Shown one piece after another: positions 8,373 to 15,342 of a stretch of DNA of 64,000 nucleotides. The position numbers and the translations under genes were made by a program. The DNA is from Thermoprotei archaeon (GTDB lineage: Archaea > Thermoproteota > Thermoprotei > Thermoproteales > B15-G16), in the NCBI GenBank assembly GCA_003649205.1, contig QMRC01000003.1, forward strand, positions 160,001 through 224,000. The letters are read 5' to 3'. Position 1 is the stretch's first letter. Each line of letters starts with the position of its first letter. A model generated the notes under the pieces. The model had not been told where the DNA came from. It worked only from the letters and a program-made list of their open reading frames with translations, and ran no database searches.

Positions 8373-9782
8373 GTGCATCTCAGTAAAACACCTAGGTTAC
8401 GCAATGGATATGTACTGTGGTTGAGTATGGTGAGGTATGTTCTCCCTATTGTCTTGATTCTGTTTCTCTTCCTTATTCCAAGTCATCACTGTTTATGTGC
8501 TTCTGCTGAGGTCATGGTAGTTAGAGGTTTTGTATATGTTGAAGGTGGTAAGCCTCCGGTCAGAGCTGATATCCCGGTGTATGCGGTTTATGGTGGTAAG
8601 GTTATTGCTGAGAACTTAACCTCAATGGATGGTTCCTTCGTCTTAATTGTAAGGGGTTTGAGTAATGGTACTGAGTTCTCTATACGTGTTGGTGAGTATG
8701 AGGTGCGTAAGTTAGTGTTCTCTCCTGGTGCTGTGATTAGTGTAGGCACTCTTAAAGTTAAGGATGCTTTGAGACCTAGTAGACCTAAAATAGTTGAAGT
8801 TCGTAGTGGTATTAGGTGGGTGTTTGTTAGGTGGAGTCACTCTAGTGATGATGTAGCTGTTTCCAAGTACGTTGTCTCGATTAGGTTAGTTAATGTGGAG
8901 AAGTACGTATCCTCCATCGAGGTCTCTAGTAAGAAGACCTCCGTTAACTTAAGTGAAGTACCTCCAGGTATTTACCTCGTTGAGGTGCAGGCTATTGATG
9001 TTGCTAATAGAGCTAGTGACGTAGCTAGTGCTAGAGTAGTTGTGTATCCGGAGAAGGTTGTAGTGTGGGGTAAGGTAGTTGTTAGGGGTCCTAGGGGGCA
9101 AGCTATGTTACCTGGTCTTTCGGTTAGGGCTTACGTTGGTAATGAACTAGTCAATAGTACTGTGACGATGCAGGGTGGTTGGTACTCACTAACTTTACCT
9201 GGTGAGAAGGTATTTGGTAAGGTGATAAAGCTTGTGTGTAGAGATTCTGAAACCGTAATCACGATCAATAGGACTAAGGTGAAGGTAGACCTAGTAGCTA
9301 GAGACTACACAGCACCTACCCCCCCTGCAAACTTAATAGCAACGTATATCGGTGACGCAGTTATCGTTAAGTGGTCTCCATCAGTAGATGACGTGGCATT
9401 GGGTGGTTACTATGTTGAGTTTCGATCTAAGTTAGTATTTACCAATGCTACGTCTGTAGTGATTAAGTGCGGTAAGTTGATACCAGGTAAATATGTGGTT
9501 CGTGTATGGGCTATGGATGCTGTTGGTAATAACAGTACAGCGGCTGTAACGCATGTGTATGTTGAGTTTCCTCATGAGAAGTTACTTACGGTGGTTAGTA
9601 TCCTAATTGTTGCGATAACTGTGGTGTCAGTGCTCGCTATAGTGCTTAGATATGTAGCTACTAAGAGAGCAGAGCGGTACGTTGACCTGTATTATAGAGC
9701 TACGTTATTGGTAGGTCGCTACTCTTCACTCTGCATACGGGCACTATCCTTGACTTCAAATCCTCTAATCTACACTCTCTAA
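8373..9782 (+). CDS. Surface protein with fibronectin type III-like repeats (true start probably ~8428)
   Basis: Signal-like N-terminus; two repeats W..S.DD...Y / V.A.D..GN; C-terminal TM helix. Confidence 0.75.
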   Translation: MHLSKTPRLRNGYVLWLSMVRYVLPIVLILFLFLIPSHHCLCASAEVMVVRGFVYVEGGKPPVRADIPVYAVYGGKVIAENLTSMDGSFVLIVRGLSNGTEFSIRVGEYEVRKLVFSPGAVISVGTLKVKDALRPSRPKIVEVRSGIRWVFVRWSHSSDDVAVSKYVVSIRLVNVEKYVSSIEVSSKKTSVNLSEVPPGIYLVEVQAIDVANRASDVASARVVVYPEKVVVWGKVVVRGPRGQAMLPGLSVRAYVGNELVNSTVTMQGGWYSLTLPGEKVFGKVIKLVCRDSETVITINRTKVKVDLVARDYTAPTPPANLIATYIGDAVIVKWSPSVDDVALGGYYVEFRSKLVFTNATSVVIKCGKLIPGKYVVRVWAMDAVGNNSTAAVTHVYVEFPHEKLLTVVSILIVAITVVSVLAIVLRYVATKRAERYVDLYYRATLLVGRYSSLCIRALSLTSNPLIYTL

Positions 9783-10167
9783 TACCACTACCGCTGTAAC
9801 AGTAGATATTGCTCAGTGGTACTGGTCTATGTCTCAAGTCTGCGATAGGTCTGAGGTATAGTATGTAGTACTTCTCACTGTAGCTTGTTATTGGGTATAT
9901 CTTCTTAAGCTCTTTAACTAGCTCTACTCTGCTTCTGAAGCCAGCTGCTTTAGCCTCATCATCACTTATACTCCTAAGCTCTTTGATGATGACTTTAGTG
10001 ACCTCAACAATGCCAACAATGCCGGATCCAGTAGCTAGAAGTAGTTTATCACCAGATCTGACGAGATCTATGTTTACAGTACCTTCCCACCTAACTTCAG
10101 CTATCTTCCTACCATCGAGAATTGCATCAGCATACTTCCTCCTTACTGCAATTACCCAAATCGCCAT
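9700..10167 (-). CDS. ASCH domain protein
   Basis: ILDGRKIAEVR (GxKxxExR); EAKAAGF. Confidence 0.85.
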   Translation of the reverse strand: MAIWVIAVRRKYADAILDGRKIAEVRWEGTVNIDLVRSGDKLLLATGSGIVGIVEVTKVIIKELRSISDDEAKAAGFRSRVELVKELKKIYPITSYSEKYYILYLRPIADLRHRPVPLSNIYCYSGSGIRECRLEDLKSRIVPVCRVKSSDLPIT

Positions 10168-10174
10168 GTTCTTC

Positions 10175-12340
10175 CTAGCTAAGTAGCTTCCTAACAGCTT
10201 TATCTACAGTAGCTTTAGCGGTCTCTATATCGGTTCTGAGAGCAGCAGCCACATCGTCCAAAGGTTTACCCTGCAGTACATAAGCAATCAACGCAACTAA
10301 TTCGCTGAAGCTTAGATCTACTGAAGGGGATTCACATAACTTCCTCAATGTTGCTAAGTAAATAGCATCCATAGCTGATTCAAGTAGAATCCTCCTACTT
10401 AAGTACATCTCGAGTCTCTTCTCTTGATTTCTCGTTAACTCAATTCTCACTGACACAGGTACCCTAATACTCTTCAATACACTAGCAACAACCTCAGCAC
10501 TTAAATCCCTGTAGACACTCATTAAGCAGGTAAGTAATCTAACCTTAAATTCCCTCAATGCTTCTTCAACGTAATGTCGCATCCTAGTACTCAGTGGCTT
10601 TATCACAGCTATGTTCTTCTCACCTGTCACCTTATTGAATCGTGGAGATACATAGATTGGTAAGTACCCGTTCTTTAACCAAAAGTCAATGATGTCATTT
10701 CTAGAGAATATAGCACCGATCCAGTCAAGGTTTATACTACGTGCTTCCTCCTCGAGGAAGTTTAGTAGTTTTGAACCGTAGCCTCTTCTCTGTAGATTAG
10801 GTACTACAGCAATCCTAACAATTCTCCAGCCTCTTGTCTTAGCAGCTTCCTTAGGACCGTACCTCAGTAACTTATCTAAGACCAGTACTCCTCTTAGACC
10901 ACGTGTAATAGCTCTCTCAACATCACGAATAGGTCCTTCCTCAGCTATCTGCGCAACAGCTACAACTCCTCTATCGGAGTTGAGTATACGAATGTGGTGA
11001 TGAGGGGCGTCAAGCATGGTCATTAAGTCATCAGGTTCATTCCTGTAGTGCGCTAGAGCGAGTAAGCCATAGACTTTCCGTAGTAAATCCCTATCCTTAA
11101 CTAGCTGTTCTTGATCTACAGAAGAGTACTCCACATTCTCTGGTTTCGGTATCTCTATTGGGTCTACTCGGAGAAAGAATACTTGGTAAAGCCACTCTTC
11201 AAGTGGATCATTTGATAGGTACCTAATAGGTACCTTGAACTCGTAGACTAGTGGACTAGGTAGCTGCTTAATTAGCAGTTCAGAAGCTACCCTTCCAGAA
11301 CCTTCGTAACCGTGGACTGTAGTCACCATCATGACCTTCCTACTCTTAGCACACAACCTCCTAACACGAGCAGCACCAACAGCAGCAGCCTCATCAATCA
11401 CCGTTAATCTAGCACCAGTAGCTAACCAAGGGACAACATACCTAACTTCAAAACCCCTACCCCTAATACCCACTACACTTCCCTTCTCAGTAATTGTCTT
11501 ATAATCAATACCTAGCTTCTCTAGCCCTAGACAGAGGAACTTCATGAATGTCGTGATACTGCGTGGTGAAGGTGCTGTTACCAAAATCTCATCAGTGTAG
11601 TTATGTGCTATAGCCAGCGCAGTTGCTAGACCGAGAGCAGCGCTCTTCCCTCTACCACGATCACCTTTACCAACTAAAACCTTAAGTGTTAAGTCACTAA
11701 GCAGTCTTAAGCTATGCAAAACGAACTCGTACTGATCCTCAGTAGCACATAGCGAAAGTACCTTTCTCAACCTCTCATCAACATTCGTGATCTCGGGTGT
11801 GAACTGTCTTCGAGATAACTTACTCGGTAGATTACGCAATACCACCTCACCGCTATCAACATCAACTACAAGGATTGATCTACACAACTTAAGCGACTCA
11901 AGTAAATACCTACGGAAGGTACCTCTACCACCCTCGACACCTGGACTCCACAAACTAAGTGACTTAGTTAACCAGATACTGAATCCACCGCACCTAATCA
12001 TCTCTGATGCAGCAGAAACAGCATTAGGTCTGAAGAAGTACCTAAAATCCATAATGACAGAGCTATACTCCCTACCTAGGTAACTAGTCAGCTCATGAAA
12101 TCTAGCTACCTCAATATCATGCACAGCAAGTACCTTACGTAGGTCCCTACTATCAGTAAATGCGAGTATAGGTCTAGCTAGGTGCCCAAGTAGTGTGCTT
12201 AATACGTGTATTACTTGTTCTGTATCACCACTGAGGACTATCAGACCTCTAGCATTACAGCTCCTAACATAGTCGATGAATTGCTTAATCTCATCAGCAA
12301 TACTACCTGTAGTTCTCATAGACATGGCAACTACATGCAA
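10175..12340 (-). CDS. tmcA: RNA cytidine acetyltransferase TmcA/Nat10 (start probably 12319 or 12325)
   Basis: GDRGRGKS; IDEAA; TTVHGYEGSGR; AHYRNEPDDL; RIVRIAV..QRRGYGS. Confidence 0.93.
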   Translation of the reverse strand: MHVVAMSMRTTGSIADEIKQFIDYVRSCNARGLIVLSGDTEQVIHVLSTLLGHLARPILAFTDSRDLRKVLAVHDIEVARFHELTSYLGREYSSVIMDFRYFFRPNAVSAASEMIRCGGFSIWLTKSLSLWSPGVEGGRGTFRRYLLESLKLCRSILVVDVDSGEVVLRNLPSKLSRRQFTPEITNVDERLRKVLSLCATEDQYEFVLHSLRLLSDLTLKVLVGKGDRGRGKSAALGLATALAIAHNYTDEILVTAPSPRSITTFMKFLCLGLEKLGIDYKTITEKGSVVGIRGRGFEVRYVVPWLATGARLTVIDEAAAVGAARVRRLCAKSRKVMMVTTVHGYEGSGRVASELLIKQLPSPLVYEFKVPIRYLSNDPLEEWLYQVFFLRVDPIEIPKPENVEYSSVDQEQLVKDRDLLRKVYGLLALAHYRNEPDDLMTMLDAPHHHIRILNSDRGVVAVAQIAEEGPIRDVERAITRGLRGVLVLDKLLRYGPKEAAKTRGWRIVRIAVVPNLQRRGYGSKLLNFLEEEARSINLDWIGAIFSRNDIIDFWLKNGYLPIYVSPRFNKVTGEKNIAVIKPLSTRMRHYVEEALREFKVRLLTCLMSVYRDLSAEVVASVLKSIRVPVSVRIELTRNQEKRLEMYLSRRILLESAMDAIYLATLRKLCESPSVDLSFSELVALIAYVLQGKPLDDVAAALRTDIETAKATVDKAVRKLLS

Positions 12341-13577
12341 TGAATGTTATCGTACCTAGATCAACGTCAAGACCACTTCTCTTAAGTTCTTCCGTAATGT
12401 ACTTCATTACCTCTCTAACGGCAAATACATTGTGTACGAAGGCACTCCTAAAGTCGTGGCTCCTCATGTACACCGTAGCATGTAGCTTACCATCCCTAAT
12501 CATGAATTGCCACAGTATGAAACAAGGTGGGTTCTCTGTCTTGACCAAGTCCTCGTAAGGACTCCAGAACACAGCAACAGCTTGTCTAGTACTCGGTTCA
12601 CTACGTAACTTATCGACGATAGCTCGCAATTGATCACCGAACTTAACCCTCAACCTCTCACCATAGCTATACTCATAACCCTCAATACTCCTACCCTCGA
12701 GAATAGCTCTACAGTACTCCTCAAGATACTTCTTAGCACCAAGTGGGTACTCTCTAGGTACTTCATCACAGAGAGGATCAAGTACGTGTATCACGACATT
12801 CATTAACTCCTTCGTAATTCCAAACCTAGACTCAACACATCTACCAAATCTCTCAATTAGTCGAATCACTTCCCTATAGGCATCAGCTACTGACCTCGCA
12901 ACAACGACTGTAAGGTTCTGTGATAGAGTCTCCACATACCCCCCGCTCACCTTACTCGTTACCTTGACTATATATGGCTCTAAGTCATATGCACCAGGAT
13001 CGAATAACCTATACTTAATACCCTTCACCTCAATCTCAACAGCATTCCAAGGTTCCTGAATACAGCCTCTAATCACCTTTCTCAGCATCTCCCTATCCGT
13101 CACACCTAGCATATCAATGACAATTACCTGATCACGAAATCTCTCAATAGCTTCAAGCGGCAGATTTGGTATGTAGGCCGTTGGTGCATCGCAATTCAGC
13201 ACTCTCCTACTCTCTGGATCCACACCATACCTCCACAACTTAATCATAGCTTCACCACTACGATGACCGCTTGTATCGTGACCAACAACTACTAGGTACC
13301 TAATGTTTGGATTAGCTAGCACATTACATACTACCTTCTCAATCCCTATGTTAGCTGTCTTACAGAAACCAGCTATTGCTACACCAAGCTCAATAGCTGT
13401 CTTCACCAATTCATTACCTACCTCATCATCCAGTGGTACCATTACAGCAACGGGATGGAACTTATTACCAAGTACGTAATTCCCATCCTCAACAGTCCAC
13501 CTATCCGGAACATTACACTTACTACACTCCTTACCTCTCCACGAAACCTTAACATGCTGAATAACACTGTAGCTCAT
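12303..13577 (-). CDS. MtrA-like corrinoid-binding domain fused to thymidylate synthase
   Basis: N-terminal KTANIGIEKVVCNVLANPNIRYL..GH.SG..ERFRDQV; C-terminal YSYGERL, TRQA, PPC, RSHD..N, HVY. Confidence 0.85.
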   Translation of the reverse strand: MSYSVIQHVKVSWRGKECSKCNVPDRWTVEDGNYVLGNKFHPVAVMVPLDDEVGNELVKTAIELGVAIAGFCKTANIGIEKVVCNVLANPNIRYLVVVGHDTSGHRSGEAMIKLWRYGVDPESRRVLNCDAPTAYIPNLPLEAIERFRDQVIVIDMLGVTDREMLRKVIRGCIQEPWNAVEIEVKGIKYRLFDPGAYDLEPYIVKVTSKVSGGYVETLSQNLTVVVARSVADAYREVIRLIERFGRCVESRFGITKELMNVVIHVLDPLCDEVPREYPLGAKKYLEEYCRAILEGRSIEGYEYSYGERLRVKFGDQLRAIVDKLRSEPSTRQAVAVFWSPYEDLVKTENPPCFILWQFMIRDGKLHATVYMRSHDFRSAFVHNVFAVREVMKYITEELKRSGLDVDLGTITFIACSCHVYENYR

Positions 13578-13839: not shown

Positions 13840-15342
13840 TCACTTGTTCTCTCTCTTGTTCATTACCTTACCACACCATTCAGGATGTGTCAATCCTCGT
13901 TCTTCCGGTGTTCCTGGTATCAGGTTATCTAGCACGATGCCGACTATAGCTGCAACGGCCATACCTGTCTCGAGTATAATCTCAACTATTTCACCTAACC
14001 ACATTAGTTGTGGAGGTAGCAGTGCGACGATTGCTCCTCTACCTTTAACACCGTATGGGTTGTAACCTTTCATCCACATAGGTACGCTTAGACCGAGGTA
14101 CAGTGACATGCCTACGATCAGTAGGTTTCTAGGTGATTTCAAGTCTATTAGCGTAAGCAGCGAAGCTCCTACAGCAGCTATCATACCGAATACTACGAGA
14201 TATAGACCTCCAATAATTGGCTTAGGAATTGTCGCCATGAGTGCTCCGAACTTACCGAAGAACCCCATTAGCAGCATGAATACCGCACCTAGCTGAATGA
14301 CGTATCTACTAGCTACCCTAACTAACCCAATGACACCTATGTTCTCTGAATAACTCGTGTACCCTCCAGCACAACCGAAGATACCACCAATTAGGCAGCC
14401 AAGGCCTTCAGCACCGAGACCCTTGGATATTGTCTTTTCGTCTGGTGGTGGTGCCTCACTCACCCTACATACTGTGTGGTAGTCACCTATAGACTCAACC
14501 ATCGATGCTACGTAAGCAGCTAACATACCGAGGATGAACGCTGGTACGAACTTAGGTAAACCCCATGGAAATGGCTTCGGTATGTTTAACCAAGGTAATT
14601 CCATGAGTGGCCTTAAATTCACGTACCCTGGATCACCAGGTTTTAGGAAGCCAGTTATCGAGAGTAGTAGTGCAACTACGTAGCTGATCATGACACCGAG
14701 TACTACTGGGAACAGCATGAATATCCTGTACCTCCTGCCAAGTACTTGACTAAACAGCACAATGAGTACCACTGTAAGTAGTGCAAGACCCCAGTTACCA
14801 CTTGCCTGTGAAGCTCCTACATCAGCTAGTGAGAGCCCAATAACTATTATCGTTGGCCCGATAGATACAGGTGTTATGTACCTTCTCAATAGACCAGCTA
14901 ATCCACTGTACCCAATCACGATCTCAAAGAATGAAGCACCTATGATAGCTCCTGTTGTGTAGAGTAGTATTTCGCTACCTCTAATCCCCATGCTCTTACA
15001 GGTAGCTATGATAGCTACTAGAGGTCCTAGAAAGGAGAATGAGGATCCTTGTACGATAGGTAACCCACTACCTACCTTTTTCCACGTTTGCAGTAGTGTA
15101 GTAATACCTGCACAGAAGAATTGAATACATACTAGCTTTGCTGTATCCTCTGGCGTTAGCTCCATTAGTGATGCTAGGAGTAGCGGAACTGCGACTGTAG
15201 CTCCAAACATTGTGAGGTAGTGTTGGAATCCTAGGAACAGTGCTGTAAGGAGTGGTGGTTTCTCTTCGATTCCATAGATTATGAATCTCTTTGTTTTAGT
15301 GTCTCTACTCTCTCTGCTAATTTCTTCAGGTAGCTTACTCAG
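13840..15342 (-). CDS. NCS2/NAT (uracil/xanthine) permease; start extended to CTG at 15342
   Basis: SYSENIG NAT signature; conserved YGIEEKPP..GFQHYL lies in frame upstream of the first ATG (15210). Confidence 0.88.
   Translation of the reverse strand: MSKLPEEISRESRDTKTKRFIIYGIEEKPPLLTALFLGFQHYLTMFGATVAVPLLLASLMELTPEDTAKLVCIQFFCAGITTLLQTWKKVGSGLPIVQGSSFSFLGPLVAIIATCKSMGIRGSEILLYTTGAIIGASFFEIVIGYSGLAGLLRRYITPVSIGPTIIVIGLSLADVGASQASGNWGLALLTVVLIVLFSQVLGRRYRIFMLFPVVLGVMISYVVALLLSITGFLKPGDPGYVNLRPLMELPWLNIPKPFPWGLPKFVPAFILGMLAAYVASMVESIGDYHTVCRVSEAPPPDEKTISKGLGAEGLGCLIGGIFGCAGGYTSYSENIGVIGLVRVASRYVIQLGAVFMLLMGFFGKFGALMATIPKPIIGGLYLVVFGMIAAVGASLLTLIDLKSPRNLLIVGMSLYLGLSVPMWMKGYNPYGVKGRGAIVALLPPQLMWLGEIVEIILETGMAVAAIVGIVLDNLIPGTPEERGLTHPEWCGKVMNKRENK

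Follow-up and report, generated by a model that had tools for sequence, protein, structure and literature searches.

What does a cobamide-binding domain of the methanogen type do at the front of a thymidylate synthase? The question is raised by a gene at positions 12303..13577, on the minus strand, of a 64,000-nt stretch of archaeal DNA (the window), which corresponds to C3:67429-131428 on the minus strand of contig C3 in the genome of an uncultured member of the Thermoproteales. An original prediction, made from the letters alone, had read the gene as an MtrA-like cobamide domain fused to the thymidylate synthase ThyA, and as a candidate for corrinoid-coupled synthesis of deoxythymidine monophosphate (dTMP) in which the corrinoid might supply the one-carbon unit or a reductant, or recycle the pterin cofactor. 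We find that the fusion is real, with a match far beyond chance, that it is very probably the cell's thymidylate synthase and that its first domain most probably binds a cobamide; as to what the cobamide is for, we tentatively favour an accessory role beside ordinary ThyA chemistry. In what follows, G000 is the host genome, other G numbers are the genomes compared with it, and L and P numbers denote loci and proteins.

An MtrA-type domain joined to a short ThyA

As originally predicted, the gene is one unbroken open reading frame (ORF) of 424 residues. It has an ATG start and a stop codon at 12303-12305, and its strand, which the prediction had not given, is minus. Because the first ~18 residues are missing from most homologues and score low in the predicted local distance difference test (pLDDT), translation may in fact begin slightly downstream of the listed ATG. 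The features of the gene are as follows.

12303..13577, minus strand: whole fusion gene (ORF list; two domains by Pfam and NCBIfam; start and stop codons checked)
13029..13514, minus strand: MtrA-type cobamide-binding domain, residues 22-183 (Pfam PF04208, 5LAA alignment, Foldseek)
12909..13028, minus strand: conserved inter-domain segment, residues 184-223 (two fusion alignments and AlphaFold2)
12312..12908, minus strand: short methanogen-type ThyA domain, residues 224-422 (TIGR03283)
13263..13265, minus strand: codon of His105, the counterpart of the cobalt-ligating His84 of MtrA (5laa_A alignment; codon checked)
12522..12524, minus strand: codon of Cys352, the catalytic nucleophile in PPC (alignment to solved ThyA; codon checked)
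12429..12431, minus strand: codon of Asn383, aligned with the Asn of 'vpfn' in solved ThyA (codon checked)

All of the hallmark motifs quoted in the original prediction were found in the translation: NIGIEK (residues 76-81), NPNIRYL (89-95), GHRSG (104-108) and ERFRDQV (145-151) in the MtrA half, and PPC (350-352), RSHDFRSAFVHN (372-383) and HVY (418-420) in the ThyA half. Profile searches run domain by domain placed both halves above their Pfam cut-offs. Pfam MtrA (PF04208) matches residues 22-183 with an E-value of 3.6e-40 and 137.9 bits (cut-off 25), and in Foldseek the MtrA half of an AlphaFold2 (AF2) model matches the MtrA structure 5LAA with a target-normalised template modelling (TM) score of 0.92. 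By sequence, the best solved structures for the whole protein are the MtrA entries 5LAA (E 1.4e-33), 8Q3V and 5L8X, with classical ThyA chains next. The equivalog model for true MtrA, TIGR01111, scores 132.2 and does not reach its cut-off of 249.15; it matches only over model positions 9-194 of 238, and the ThyA domain follows directly, in agreement with the earlier statement that the protein has no MtrA membrane anchor.

The cobalamin contacts of solved MtrA, including the cobalt ligand His84 and its hydrogen-bond partner Glu54, have been described (PMC4915002), and we mapped them onto the fusion through a HMMER alignment to 5laa_A, whose chain numbering agrees with the 109-GAIPYxEN motif of that paper. 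The correspondence reads as follows.

MtrA Tyr18: Y34 of the fusion
MtrA Lys52: K73
MtrA Thr53: T74
MtrA Glu54 (hydrogen-bond partner of His84): Ala75
MtrA Asn55: N76
MtrA Gly57: G78
MtrA Val61: V82
MtrA Asn64: N85
MtrA His84 (cobalt ligand): H105

Eight of the nine cobalamin-contact side chains of 5LAA are kept, and the nucleotide-tail pocket is complete in all seven of its residues; the cobalt-ligating His that had been read from the motif aligns, as H105, with residue 84 of the solved chain. The His84–Glu54 linkage is lacking in the fusion, where Glu54 is replaced by Ala75. This Ala is nearly invariant among fusions, and MtrA fused to other partners (for example TusA) keeps Glu at the position. 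The meander motif GAIPYxEN of MtrA reads APTAYIPN. Judging from these residues, and from the CobS and the RACo activase with a B12-binding protein that the genome encodes, the domain most probably binds a cobamide in the base-off/His-on form through His105. It shares its fold, the cobalt-ligating His and the seven contacts with MtrA and the cytoplasmic MtrA homologue of methanogens (5LAA, 5L8X; PMC4915002), the latter being soluble as well; unlike the fusion, MtrA of methanogens has a membrane anchor, an mtr operon, the His–Glu linkage and another meander, and is not fused to an enzyme domain.

In the C-terminal half, Pfam Thymidylat_synt (PF00303) covers residues 312-422 (E 5.7e-14, 52.3 bits, cut-off 24.3), and TIGR03283, the model for methanogen-type thymidylate synthase, covers residues 224-422 and model positions 2-196 of 201. 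Its score of 171.8 bits lies just under the equivalog cut-off of 174.55; in a six-frame search of the genome the same model gave 174.5 (174.7 including neighbouring matches, flagged 'yes'). The C-terminal 200 residues match 195 of the 201 model positions and share with unfused TIGR03283 enzymes all conserved columns and the same C-terminal end, whereas the unfused enzymes have no N-terminal MtrA domain of ~190 residues. None of the residues C352, R372, S373, D375, N383, H418 and Y420 varies across 20 fusion proteins, and their counterparts in solved ThyA chains are the catalytic Cys, R-S-x-D, the specificity Asn and H-x-Y, so the claim that Asn and all ThyA catalytic residues are kept stands. 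The counterpart of Cys352 in solved ThyA is the Cys of 'lppc', and Cys occupies this position in 148/148 ThyA domains compared. In the ThyA family, Asn at the position of N383 selects deoxyuridine monophosphate (dUMP) over deoxycytidine monophosphate (dCMP), and the Asp of R-S-x-D, here D375, binds the pterin in the classical enzyme.

The fusion ends at the equivalent of position 212 of the classical ThyA chains of 263(-264) residues, the last ~50 of which are absent, and unfused methanogen-type enzymes end at the same point, also ~50 residues short. In classical ThyA the C-terminal segment closes over the folate. The conserved ThyA columns are identical in fusions that bear the cobalt-ligating His, in fusions without it, in bacterial three-domain proteins and in unfused methanogen forms, and we saw no class-specific loss of pterin-related ThyA residues in the His-bearing fusions. 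About ten ThyA columns that do differ were considered as a functional signal and rejected, the differences tracking tree clades. In Foldseek the C-terminal half matched ThyA-fold enzymes, including the phage dCMP hydroxylase 9iqu (target-normalised TM 0.80), MilA and T4 dCMP hydroxymethylase.

Between the two domains, D193, G195 and P201 are invariant and a Y-x-L-[FY]-D-P-G-A motif is conserved (two alignments). The AF2 model, built from 20 fusion proteins, has a mean pLDDT of 88.6 and a predicted TM score (pTM) of 0.55, and the ESM Atlas model a pTM of 0.51; AF2 places a beta-hairpin at residues 180-191, followed by a low-confidence loop (pLDDT <50 at 209-211). Both domains are predicted to fold confidently, and their relative orientation is not fixed by the model. 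A complex prediction with two ThyA and two MtrA parts (score 0.02, mark 0.32) counts neither way.

Thymidylate synthase identity and spread of the fusion

To our knowledge there are only two kinds of thymidylate synthase, ThyA and ThyX. Across the 62 genomes of the order-level comparison, ThyX, which is unrelated to the fusion in fold and cofactor, was matched in 53, among them 35 of 37 genomes with a completeness of at least 90%. In that set only G000 and G002 have no ThyX match, and both carry the fusion; G001 (71% complete) and G012 (87%) likewise have the fusion and no ThyX match, and in these four genomes it takes the slot that ThyX holds elsewhere. G013 carries the fusion alongside ThyX. 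Five more genomes (G011, G025, G031, G044 and G060; 61-89% complete) have neither a ThyX match nor a full fusion; G011 has a short MtrA form only (a 321-aa frame with no TIGR03283 match), and G060 a ThyA-like gene without MtrA. In distribution the fusion is complementary to ThyX within the order, and neither ThyX nor dihydrofolate reductase (DHFR) was matched in G000. Serine hydroxymethyltransferase (SHMT) is present in 60/62 genomes and absent only in G000 and G001, which belong to one family. At G061:C39:5264-6966, ThyX and a ThyA-like fragment (a 285-aa frame with no MtrA domain) lie ~0.8 kb apart on opposite strands.

PF00303 matched the host genome in three places, which are the same gene twice on contig C3 and a paralogue on contig C8. 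Contig C3 (291,428 bases) is its own reverse complement with 0 mismatches, and the window lies within one arm. A second copy of the fusion on C3, suggested by two identical matches, was therefore rejected as a duplication: there is one gene on a palindromic contig. Every C3 gene appears twice in genome searches, through this fold-back assembly artefact. The paralogue at C8:66583-68166 (L089:10583-12166) is a second MtrA-ThyA protein, of 527 aa, with two insertions, HHPC for NPPC and the His kept. It lies 8.3 kb downstream of NrdD in an island where genes for a Cas4-like nuclease, a PIN protein and a serine recombinase stand among many orphans; of the 22 island proteins scanned, 17 have no PHROG match, and we describe the island as mobile-element-like without calling it a virus. 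Viral carriage of the fusion was rejected, IMG/VR having given only two distant loci (23% identity).

Because the fusion replaces ThyX, keeps its catalytic residues intact and has Asn at the specificity position, we regard dTMP synthesis as its likely function with good confidence, and the fusion very probably as the thymidylate synthase of the cell.

Beyond the order, a word-index search listed 120 proteins, 26 of them with both Pfam domains, and an exhaustive search of representatives (clusters at 50% identity) gave 5,451 matches at E <=1e-3 and 64 at E <=1e-30. Pfam assignment of 25 representatives gave five with MtrA and ThyA, 13 with an MtrA-like domain, ThyA and PterinBD-DUF4346, three with ThyA and DUF4346, two with ThyA alone and two with MtrA without ThyA. 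The two-domain architecture is present in at least 54 representatives spanning Thermoproteota, Halobacteriota and DPANN, with full-length genes in metagenome-assembled genomes (MAGs) labelled Methanoperedens, Methanotrichaceae, Nanohaloarchaea, Aenigmatarchaeota and Nanobdellati. The ESM Atlas likewise holds an archaeal MtrA/ThyA cluster of 60 members, with Nanobdellota the commonest phylum, and bacterial clusters of 52-113 members with ThyA+DUF4346. Where three-domain members are named, their hosts are bacteria (KSB1 and Abditibacteriota, for instance) and they carry the labels 'thymidylate synthase' or 'DUF4346 domain-containing protein'. Proteins P0130-P0258 make up this bacterial class: at ~445-625 aa they combine a degenerate MtrA-like domain, a short ThyA and a C-terminal PterinBD-DUF4346. 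They share with the fusion the order of the first two domains and the short ThyA core, and differ in the additional DUF4346, the mostly bacterial hosts and the rarity of the His. The idea that DUF4346 is itself a piece of MtrA was rejected (hhalign probability 0.2%).

In an HMM-guided alignment, 45 of 54 representatives with two domains bear His at the ligand position (20/26 in the window's clade, 18/21 in the other large clade and 7/7 in the others), against only 2 of 69 bacterial three-domain representatives. A ThyA-domain tree of 148 rows places the window's protein in a well-supported clade of 26, all of them two-domain; the tree (FastTree, midpoint root) was drawn from sequences selected for their similarity to the fused query, hence biased to fused forms, and we do not infer the order of fusion and fission from it. 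The short ThyA core also exists on its own. In a sample of 121 genomes from another archaeal phylum, that of G066, it is present in 103, mostly unfused in frames of ~209-292 aa, and the word-index search for unfused relatives gave 34 candidates, none of them significant. Sixteen genomes of that sample have one frame of 419-518 aa with two tandem short-ThyA domains (for example G092:C9:20142-21452), a possible covalent 'dimer', and 14 of the 16 have no MtrA-family match.

The MtrA half can likewise persist by itself. In genus g4, MtrA is found in 7/7 genomes, mostly in frames of ~320-350 aa, and the short proteins of G009-G015 (P0021, P0022, P0027-P0032; 320-350 aa) keep the MtrA half, the linker and the His, with the ThyA half decayed (no P-C, no RS.D). 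ThyX is also present in five of the seven genomes. Since g4 keeps the MtrA half intact where the ThyA half has decayed, the MtrA half has some value apart from dTMP synthesis.

One-carbon and cobamide metabolism of the host

The host is a Thermoproteales MAG of 2.07 Mb in 31 contigs, 93.8% complete with 4.2% contamination, and the named relatives of the gene come from uncultured Thermoproteales/Thermoproteaceae MAGs (93%, 55% and 52% identity). Profile searches of G000 found no ThyX, DHFR, SHMT, GcvT, methylenetetrahydrofolate reductase (MTHFR), F420-dependent Mtd, Pterin_bind or McrA, the last of these in keeping with the original description of an apparent non-methanogen. The genome does encode CobS and an Mch (354 bits) that adjoins Ftr and Fwd-like genes. 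Together at C5:80000-88100 (L114:8064-16098) lie Fwd-like genes for molybdopterin, amidohydrolase and GXGXG subunits, Ftr, Mch, an F420-ligase-like gene and a RimK-like ligase gene.

The original prediction had also stated that no other mtr gene lies in the window. This holds for MtrA and MtrH, the searches having left MtrB-G aside, and does not extend to the genome: at C1:284299-293557 (L088:4299-13557), contig C1 carries an MtrH homologue (C1:284299-285231, 247 bits), three URO-D-type methyltransferases, a corrinoid protein that binds B12, an MFS transporter and a RACo activase (602 aa, RACo_C_ter E 7.4e-88), the activase thus sitting in this other methyltransferase cluster. The cluster presumably resembles the O-demethylase (methoxydotrophy) systems of other archaea, and we know of no description of its kind for Thermoproteales. 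Because McrA was not found and Mch-Ftr-Fwd, CobS and the C1 cluster are present, the host appears from its gene content to be a non-methanogen with a tetrahydromethanopterin (H4MPT)/methanofuran one-carbon pathway and working corrinoid biochemistry, to which methyl-H4MPT and, presumably, methylene-H4MPT should be available.

The genes around the fusion are the following.

13840..15210, minus strand: xanthine/uracil-family nucleobase permease, Xan_ur_permease (Pfam PF00860, E 3.9e-85), a neighbour only
10175-12340, minus strand: TmcA-type RNA cytidine acetyltransferase, which follows the fusion; its ORF overlaps the fusion end by 38 nt
9700-10167, minus strand: ASCH-domain protein, which follows the fusion and TmcA

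The permease lies directly upstream on the same strand, as had been noted, across a 262-nt gap. No Xan_ur_permease was found among the neighbours at 15 other fusion loci, and we treat it as a neighbour whose membership in the system is only a candidate one. The order fusion-TmcA-ASCH recurs in L008, whose protein is the 93%-identical relative, and Pfam analysis of 85 neighbour proteins at the 15 loci revealed no recurring methyltransferase, activase or pterin enzyme. At four loci of the Nanohaloarchaea type (L019, L020, L025 and L026, interrelated and not independent), two RimK-type ATP-grasp ligase genes stand divergently upstream of the fusion. These genes may bear on the cofactor, since some ligases of the RimK type attach glutamate to H4MPT and F420.

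What the cobamide might do

The account we tentatively prefer is ordinary methylene-H4MPT ThyA chemistry accompanied by an accessory cobamide-binding domain, in a gene that serves as the organism's chromosomal thymidylate synthase. Cys352 would attack C6 of dUMP, whose C5 would then take a one-carbon unit, most likely the methylene of methylene-H4MPT, which is the likeliest donor because the host has the H4MPT/methanofuran pathway and no SHMT, GcvT or MTHFR match; reduction and release would give dTMP, as in other ThyA enzymes. The cobamide domain would be an accessory rather than the one-carbon donor, inherited from an old fusion and helping in the assembly or gating of the enzyme. The domain architecture, the conserved catalytic and cobalamin-contact residues, the distribution complementary to ThyX and the H4MPT and cobamide genes of the host are observed; that the protein binds a cobamide, which pterin is the donor and what the domain does beside ThyA are the parts of this account that we infer.

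Several observations favour it. The ThyA columns are the same in all classes, and the short core is unfused in most of the 103 genomes that have it in the 121-genome sample; relatives keep the MtrA-like domain even where the B12 pocket has decayed, and the His is lost in 67/69 three-domain and 9/54 two-domain representatives with the ThyA residues intact. In Methanosarcina extracts, dUMP is reported to have been converted to dTMP with labelled formaldehyde and the tetrahydrosarcinapterin of the extract (PMC9931769). Other observations weigh against it. An accessory role leaves unexplained that selection maintains the whole cobalamin pocket in 45 of the 54 representatives with two domains. In bacteria, pocket loss coincides with the gain of a C-terminal PterinBD-DUF4346, which looks like one cofactor-handling module replacing another. 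The short ThyA is without the last ~50 residues of the classical enzyme; no methylene-pterin-making enzyme was found in G000 among SHMT, GcvT, MTHFR and F420-dependent Mtd, a search that left aside Mer and other dehydrogenases; and two sources report no use of a pterin by any short ThyA purified from archaea (PMC9012536, PMC9931769).

A methyl-cobamide relay, which we consider somewhat less probable, would turn several of these points to account. In it an MtrH-type enzyme would load a methyl group from methyl-H4MPT onto the cob(I)amide of the MtrA domain, and the Cys352-dUMP enolate would attack methyl-Co(III), so that ThyA would act as a second methyltransferase and dTMP would arise without methylene-pterin, pterin oxidation or flavin. 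A methyl-carrying corrinoid domain and a one-carbon-accepting enzyme do stand in one chain across a conserved linker, the cobalamin pocket is intact with its His in most two-domain representatives, and the loss of the pocket in bacteria goes with the gain of DUF4346. G000 and G002 have MtrH homologues, G000 has in addition the RACo activase and CobS, and G000 is without DHFR, SHMT, GcvT, MTHFR and F420-dependent Mtd as searched. The active site of a ThyA without the classical C-terminal segment may be open enough for a protein-bound corrin, and the reported MtrA-MtrH fusions of Asgard archaea (PMC11291895) are other cases of MtrA joined to a methyltransferase. The partners, however, are not matched in every carrier. 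MtrH is matched in two of the four fusion-only Thermoproteales genomes and in neither G001 (71% complete) nor G012 (87%), and it also occurs in three genomes without the fusion; four DPANN carriers (1.1-1.3 Mb) have no match to MtrH, ThyX, SHMT, CobS or Pterin_bind, the last of these being unmatched in G000 and G001 too. The MtrH gene of G000 is part of another cluster, one that encodes a B12-binding protein of its own. The fusion of G012, which has no ThyX match, carries Tyr at the cobalt-ligand position; conservation of the ThyA half, including D375, is the same as in unfused forms; the short core occurs in genomes without an MtrA-family match; and genus g4 keeps the MtrA half intact with the ThyA half decayed. 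The accessory and relay readings are close, and the relay leaves the His-less and MtrH-less members unexplained. The corrinoid-coupled dTMP route as originally proposed is only partly supported: the conserved fusion, the kept His and pocket and the lack of ThyX and DHFR matches speak for it, whereas the His-less members, the Tyr of G012, the DPANN genomes without an MtrH or CobS match and the short ThyA in genomes without an MtrA-family match weigh against an obligatory part for the corrinoid.

Three further readings are less probable still. That the MtrA-like half is vestigial, no longer binding a cobamide and serving only as a scaffold on which the short ThyA folds or oligomerises, we think unlikely: a His-less, degenerate MtrA-like domain does persist in 67/69 three-domain representatives, Glu54 is Ala in this and most other fusions, the meander reads APTAYIPN instead of GAIPYxEN and the TIGR01111 cut-off is missed, but the cobalamin-contact side chains are kept, eight of nine, at only 35-57% overall identity, and decay of the ThyA half, where it occurs, leaves the MtrA half intact. 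It is improbable that the cobamide is a reductant, with a pterin giving the methylene, cob(I)amide reducing the exocyclic methylene intermediate and the pterin staying tetrahydro as with ThyX. Such a scheme would accommodate a G000 in which DHFR was not found and four DPANN hosts with no ThyX, SHMT, MtrH, Pterin_bind or CobS match, and other MtrA homologues fused to 4Fe-4S domains (Pfam annotations) hint at redox use; yet no electron-input domain is present in the protein, the His-less members are as awkward for this scheme as for the relay, each turnover would demand a costly regeneration of cob(I), and we know of no precedent. Least probable of all, in our view, is that the enzyme is no thymidylate synthase and that the product of its ThyA fold is a pyrimidine nucleotide modified otherwise at C5, with a hydroxymethyl or hydroxy group for instance. 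The fold matches to 9iqu (TM 0.80), MilA and T4 dCMP hydroxymethylase, known to us by their PDB entry titles, point that way, against an invariant Asn rather than Asp at the specificity position, the standing-in of the fusion for ThyX in genomes otherwise without a thymidylate synthase, and a best NCBIfam model that is the methanogen-type thymidylate synthase equivalog.

The original prediction allowed that the fusion might already have been characterised. Our literature search gave no paper on an MtrA-ThyA fusion and none on DUF4346, and the architecture is already in databases under automatic names. Wagner et al. (PMC4915002) note that non-methanogens, too, have MtrA homologues, most of which keep the His; the word 'thymidylate' does not occur in their text. 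Two relatives in design are instructive. Protozoan bifunctional DHFR-thymidylate synthases, which are among the fold matches, also place a domain that handles a one-carbon cofactor N-terminal to a thymidylate synthase, but their partner is a dihydrofolate reductase that recycles the pterin, as against a corrinoid-binding domain and a short ThyA here. The Asgard MtrA-MtrH proteins, as reported, resemble the fusion in joining an MtrA-like corrinoid domain to a one-carbon-transfer enzyme in a non-methanogen, and differ in that the partner is a methyl-H4MPT:corrinoid methyltransferase rather than ThyA (PMC11291895).

The fusion is a ThyA with an unstudied cobamide domain, widespread in uncultured archaea. 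According to two sources, dTMP synthesis in H4MPT-using archaea has not been worked out with a purified enzyme (PMC9012536, PMC9931769). Here a well-preserved B12 pocket is tied to a poorly understood short ThyA in at least 54 representatives, and the protein takes the place of ThyX in some Thermoproteales. Should the cobamide not be catalytic, the fusion would still be a clean system for studying soluble MtrA homologues outside methanogens and the one-carbon donor of the short ThyA. If the relay were true, it would be a third route to thymidylate, and the cytoplasmic MtrA homologues of methanogens might likewise serve unfused short ThyA. If the cobamide is catalytic, both the nucleotide chemistry and the use made of B12 would be new, and the DNA synthesis of these archaea, DPANN symbionts among them, would depend on cobamide supply.

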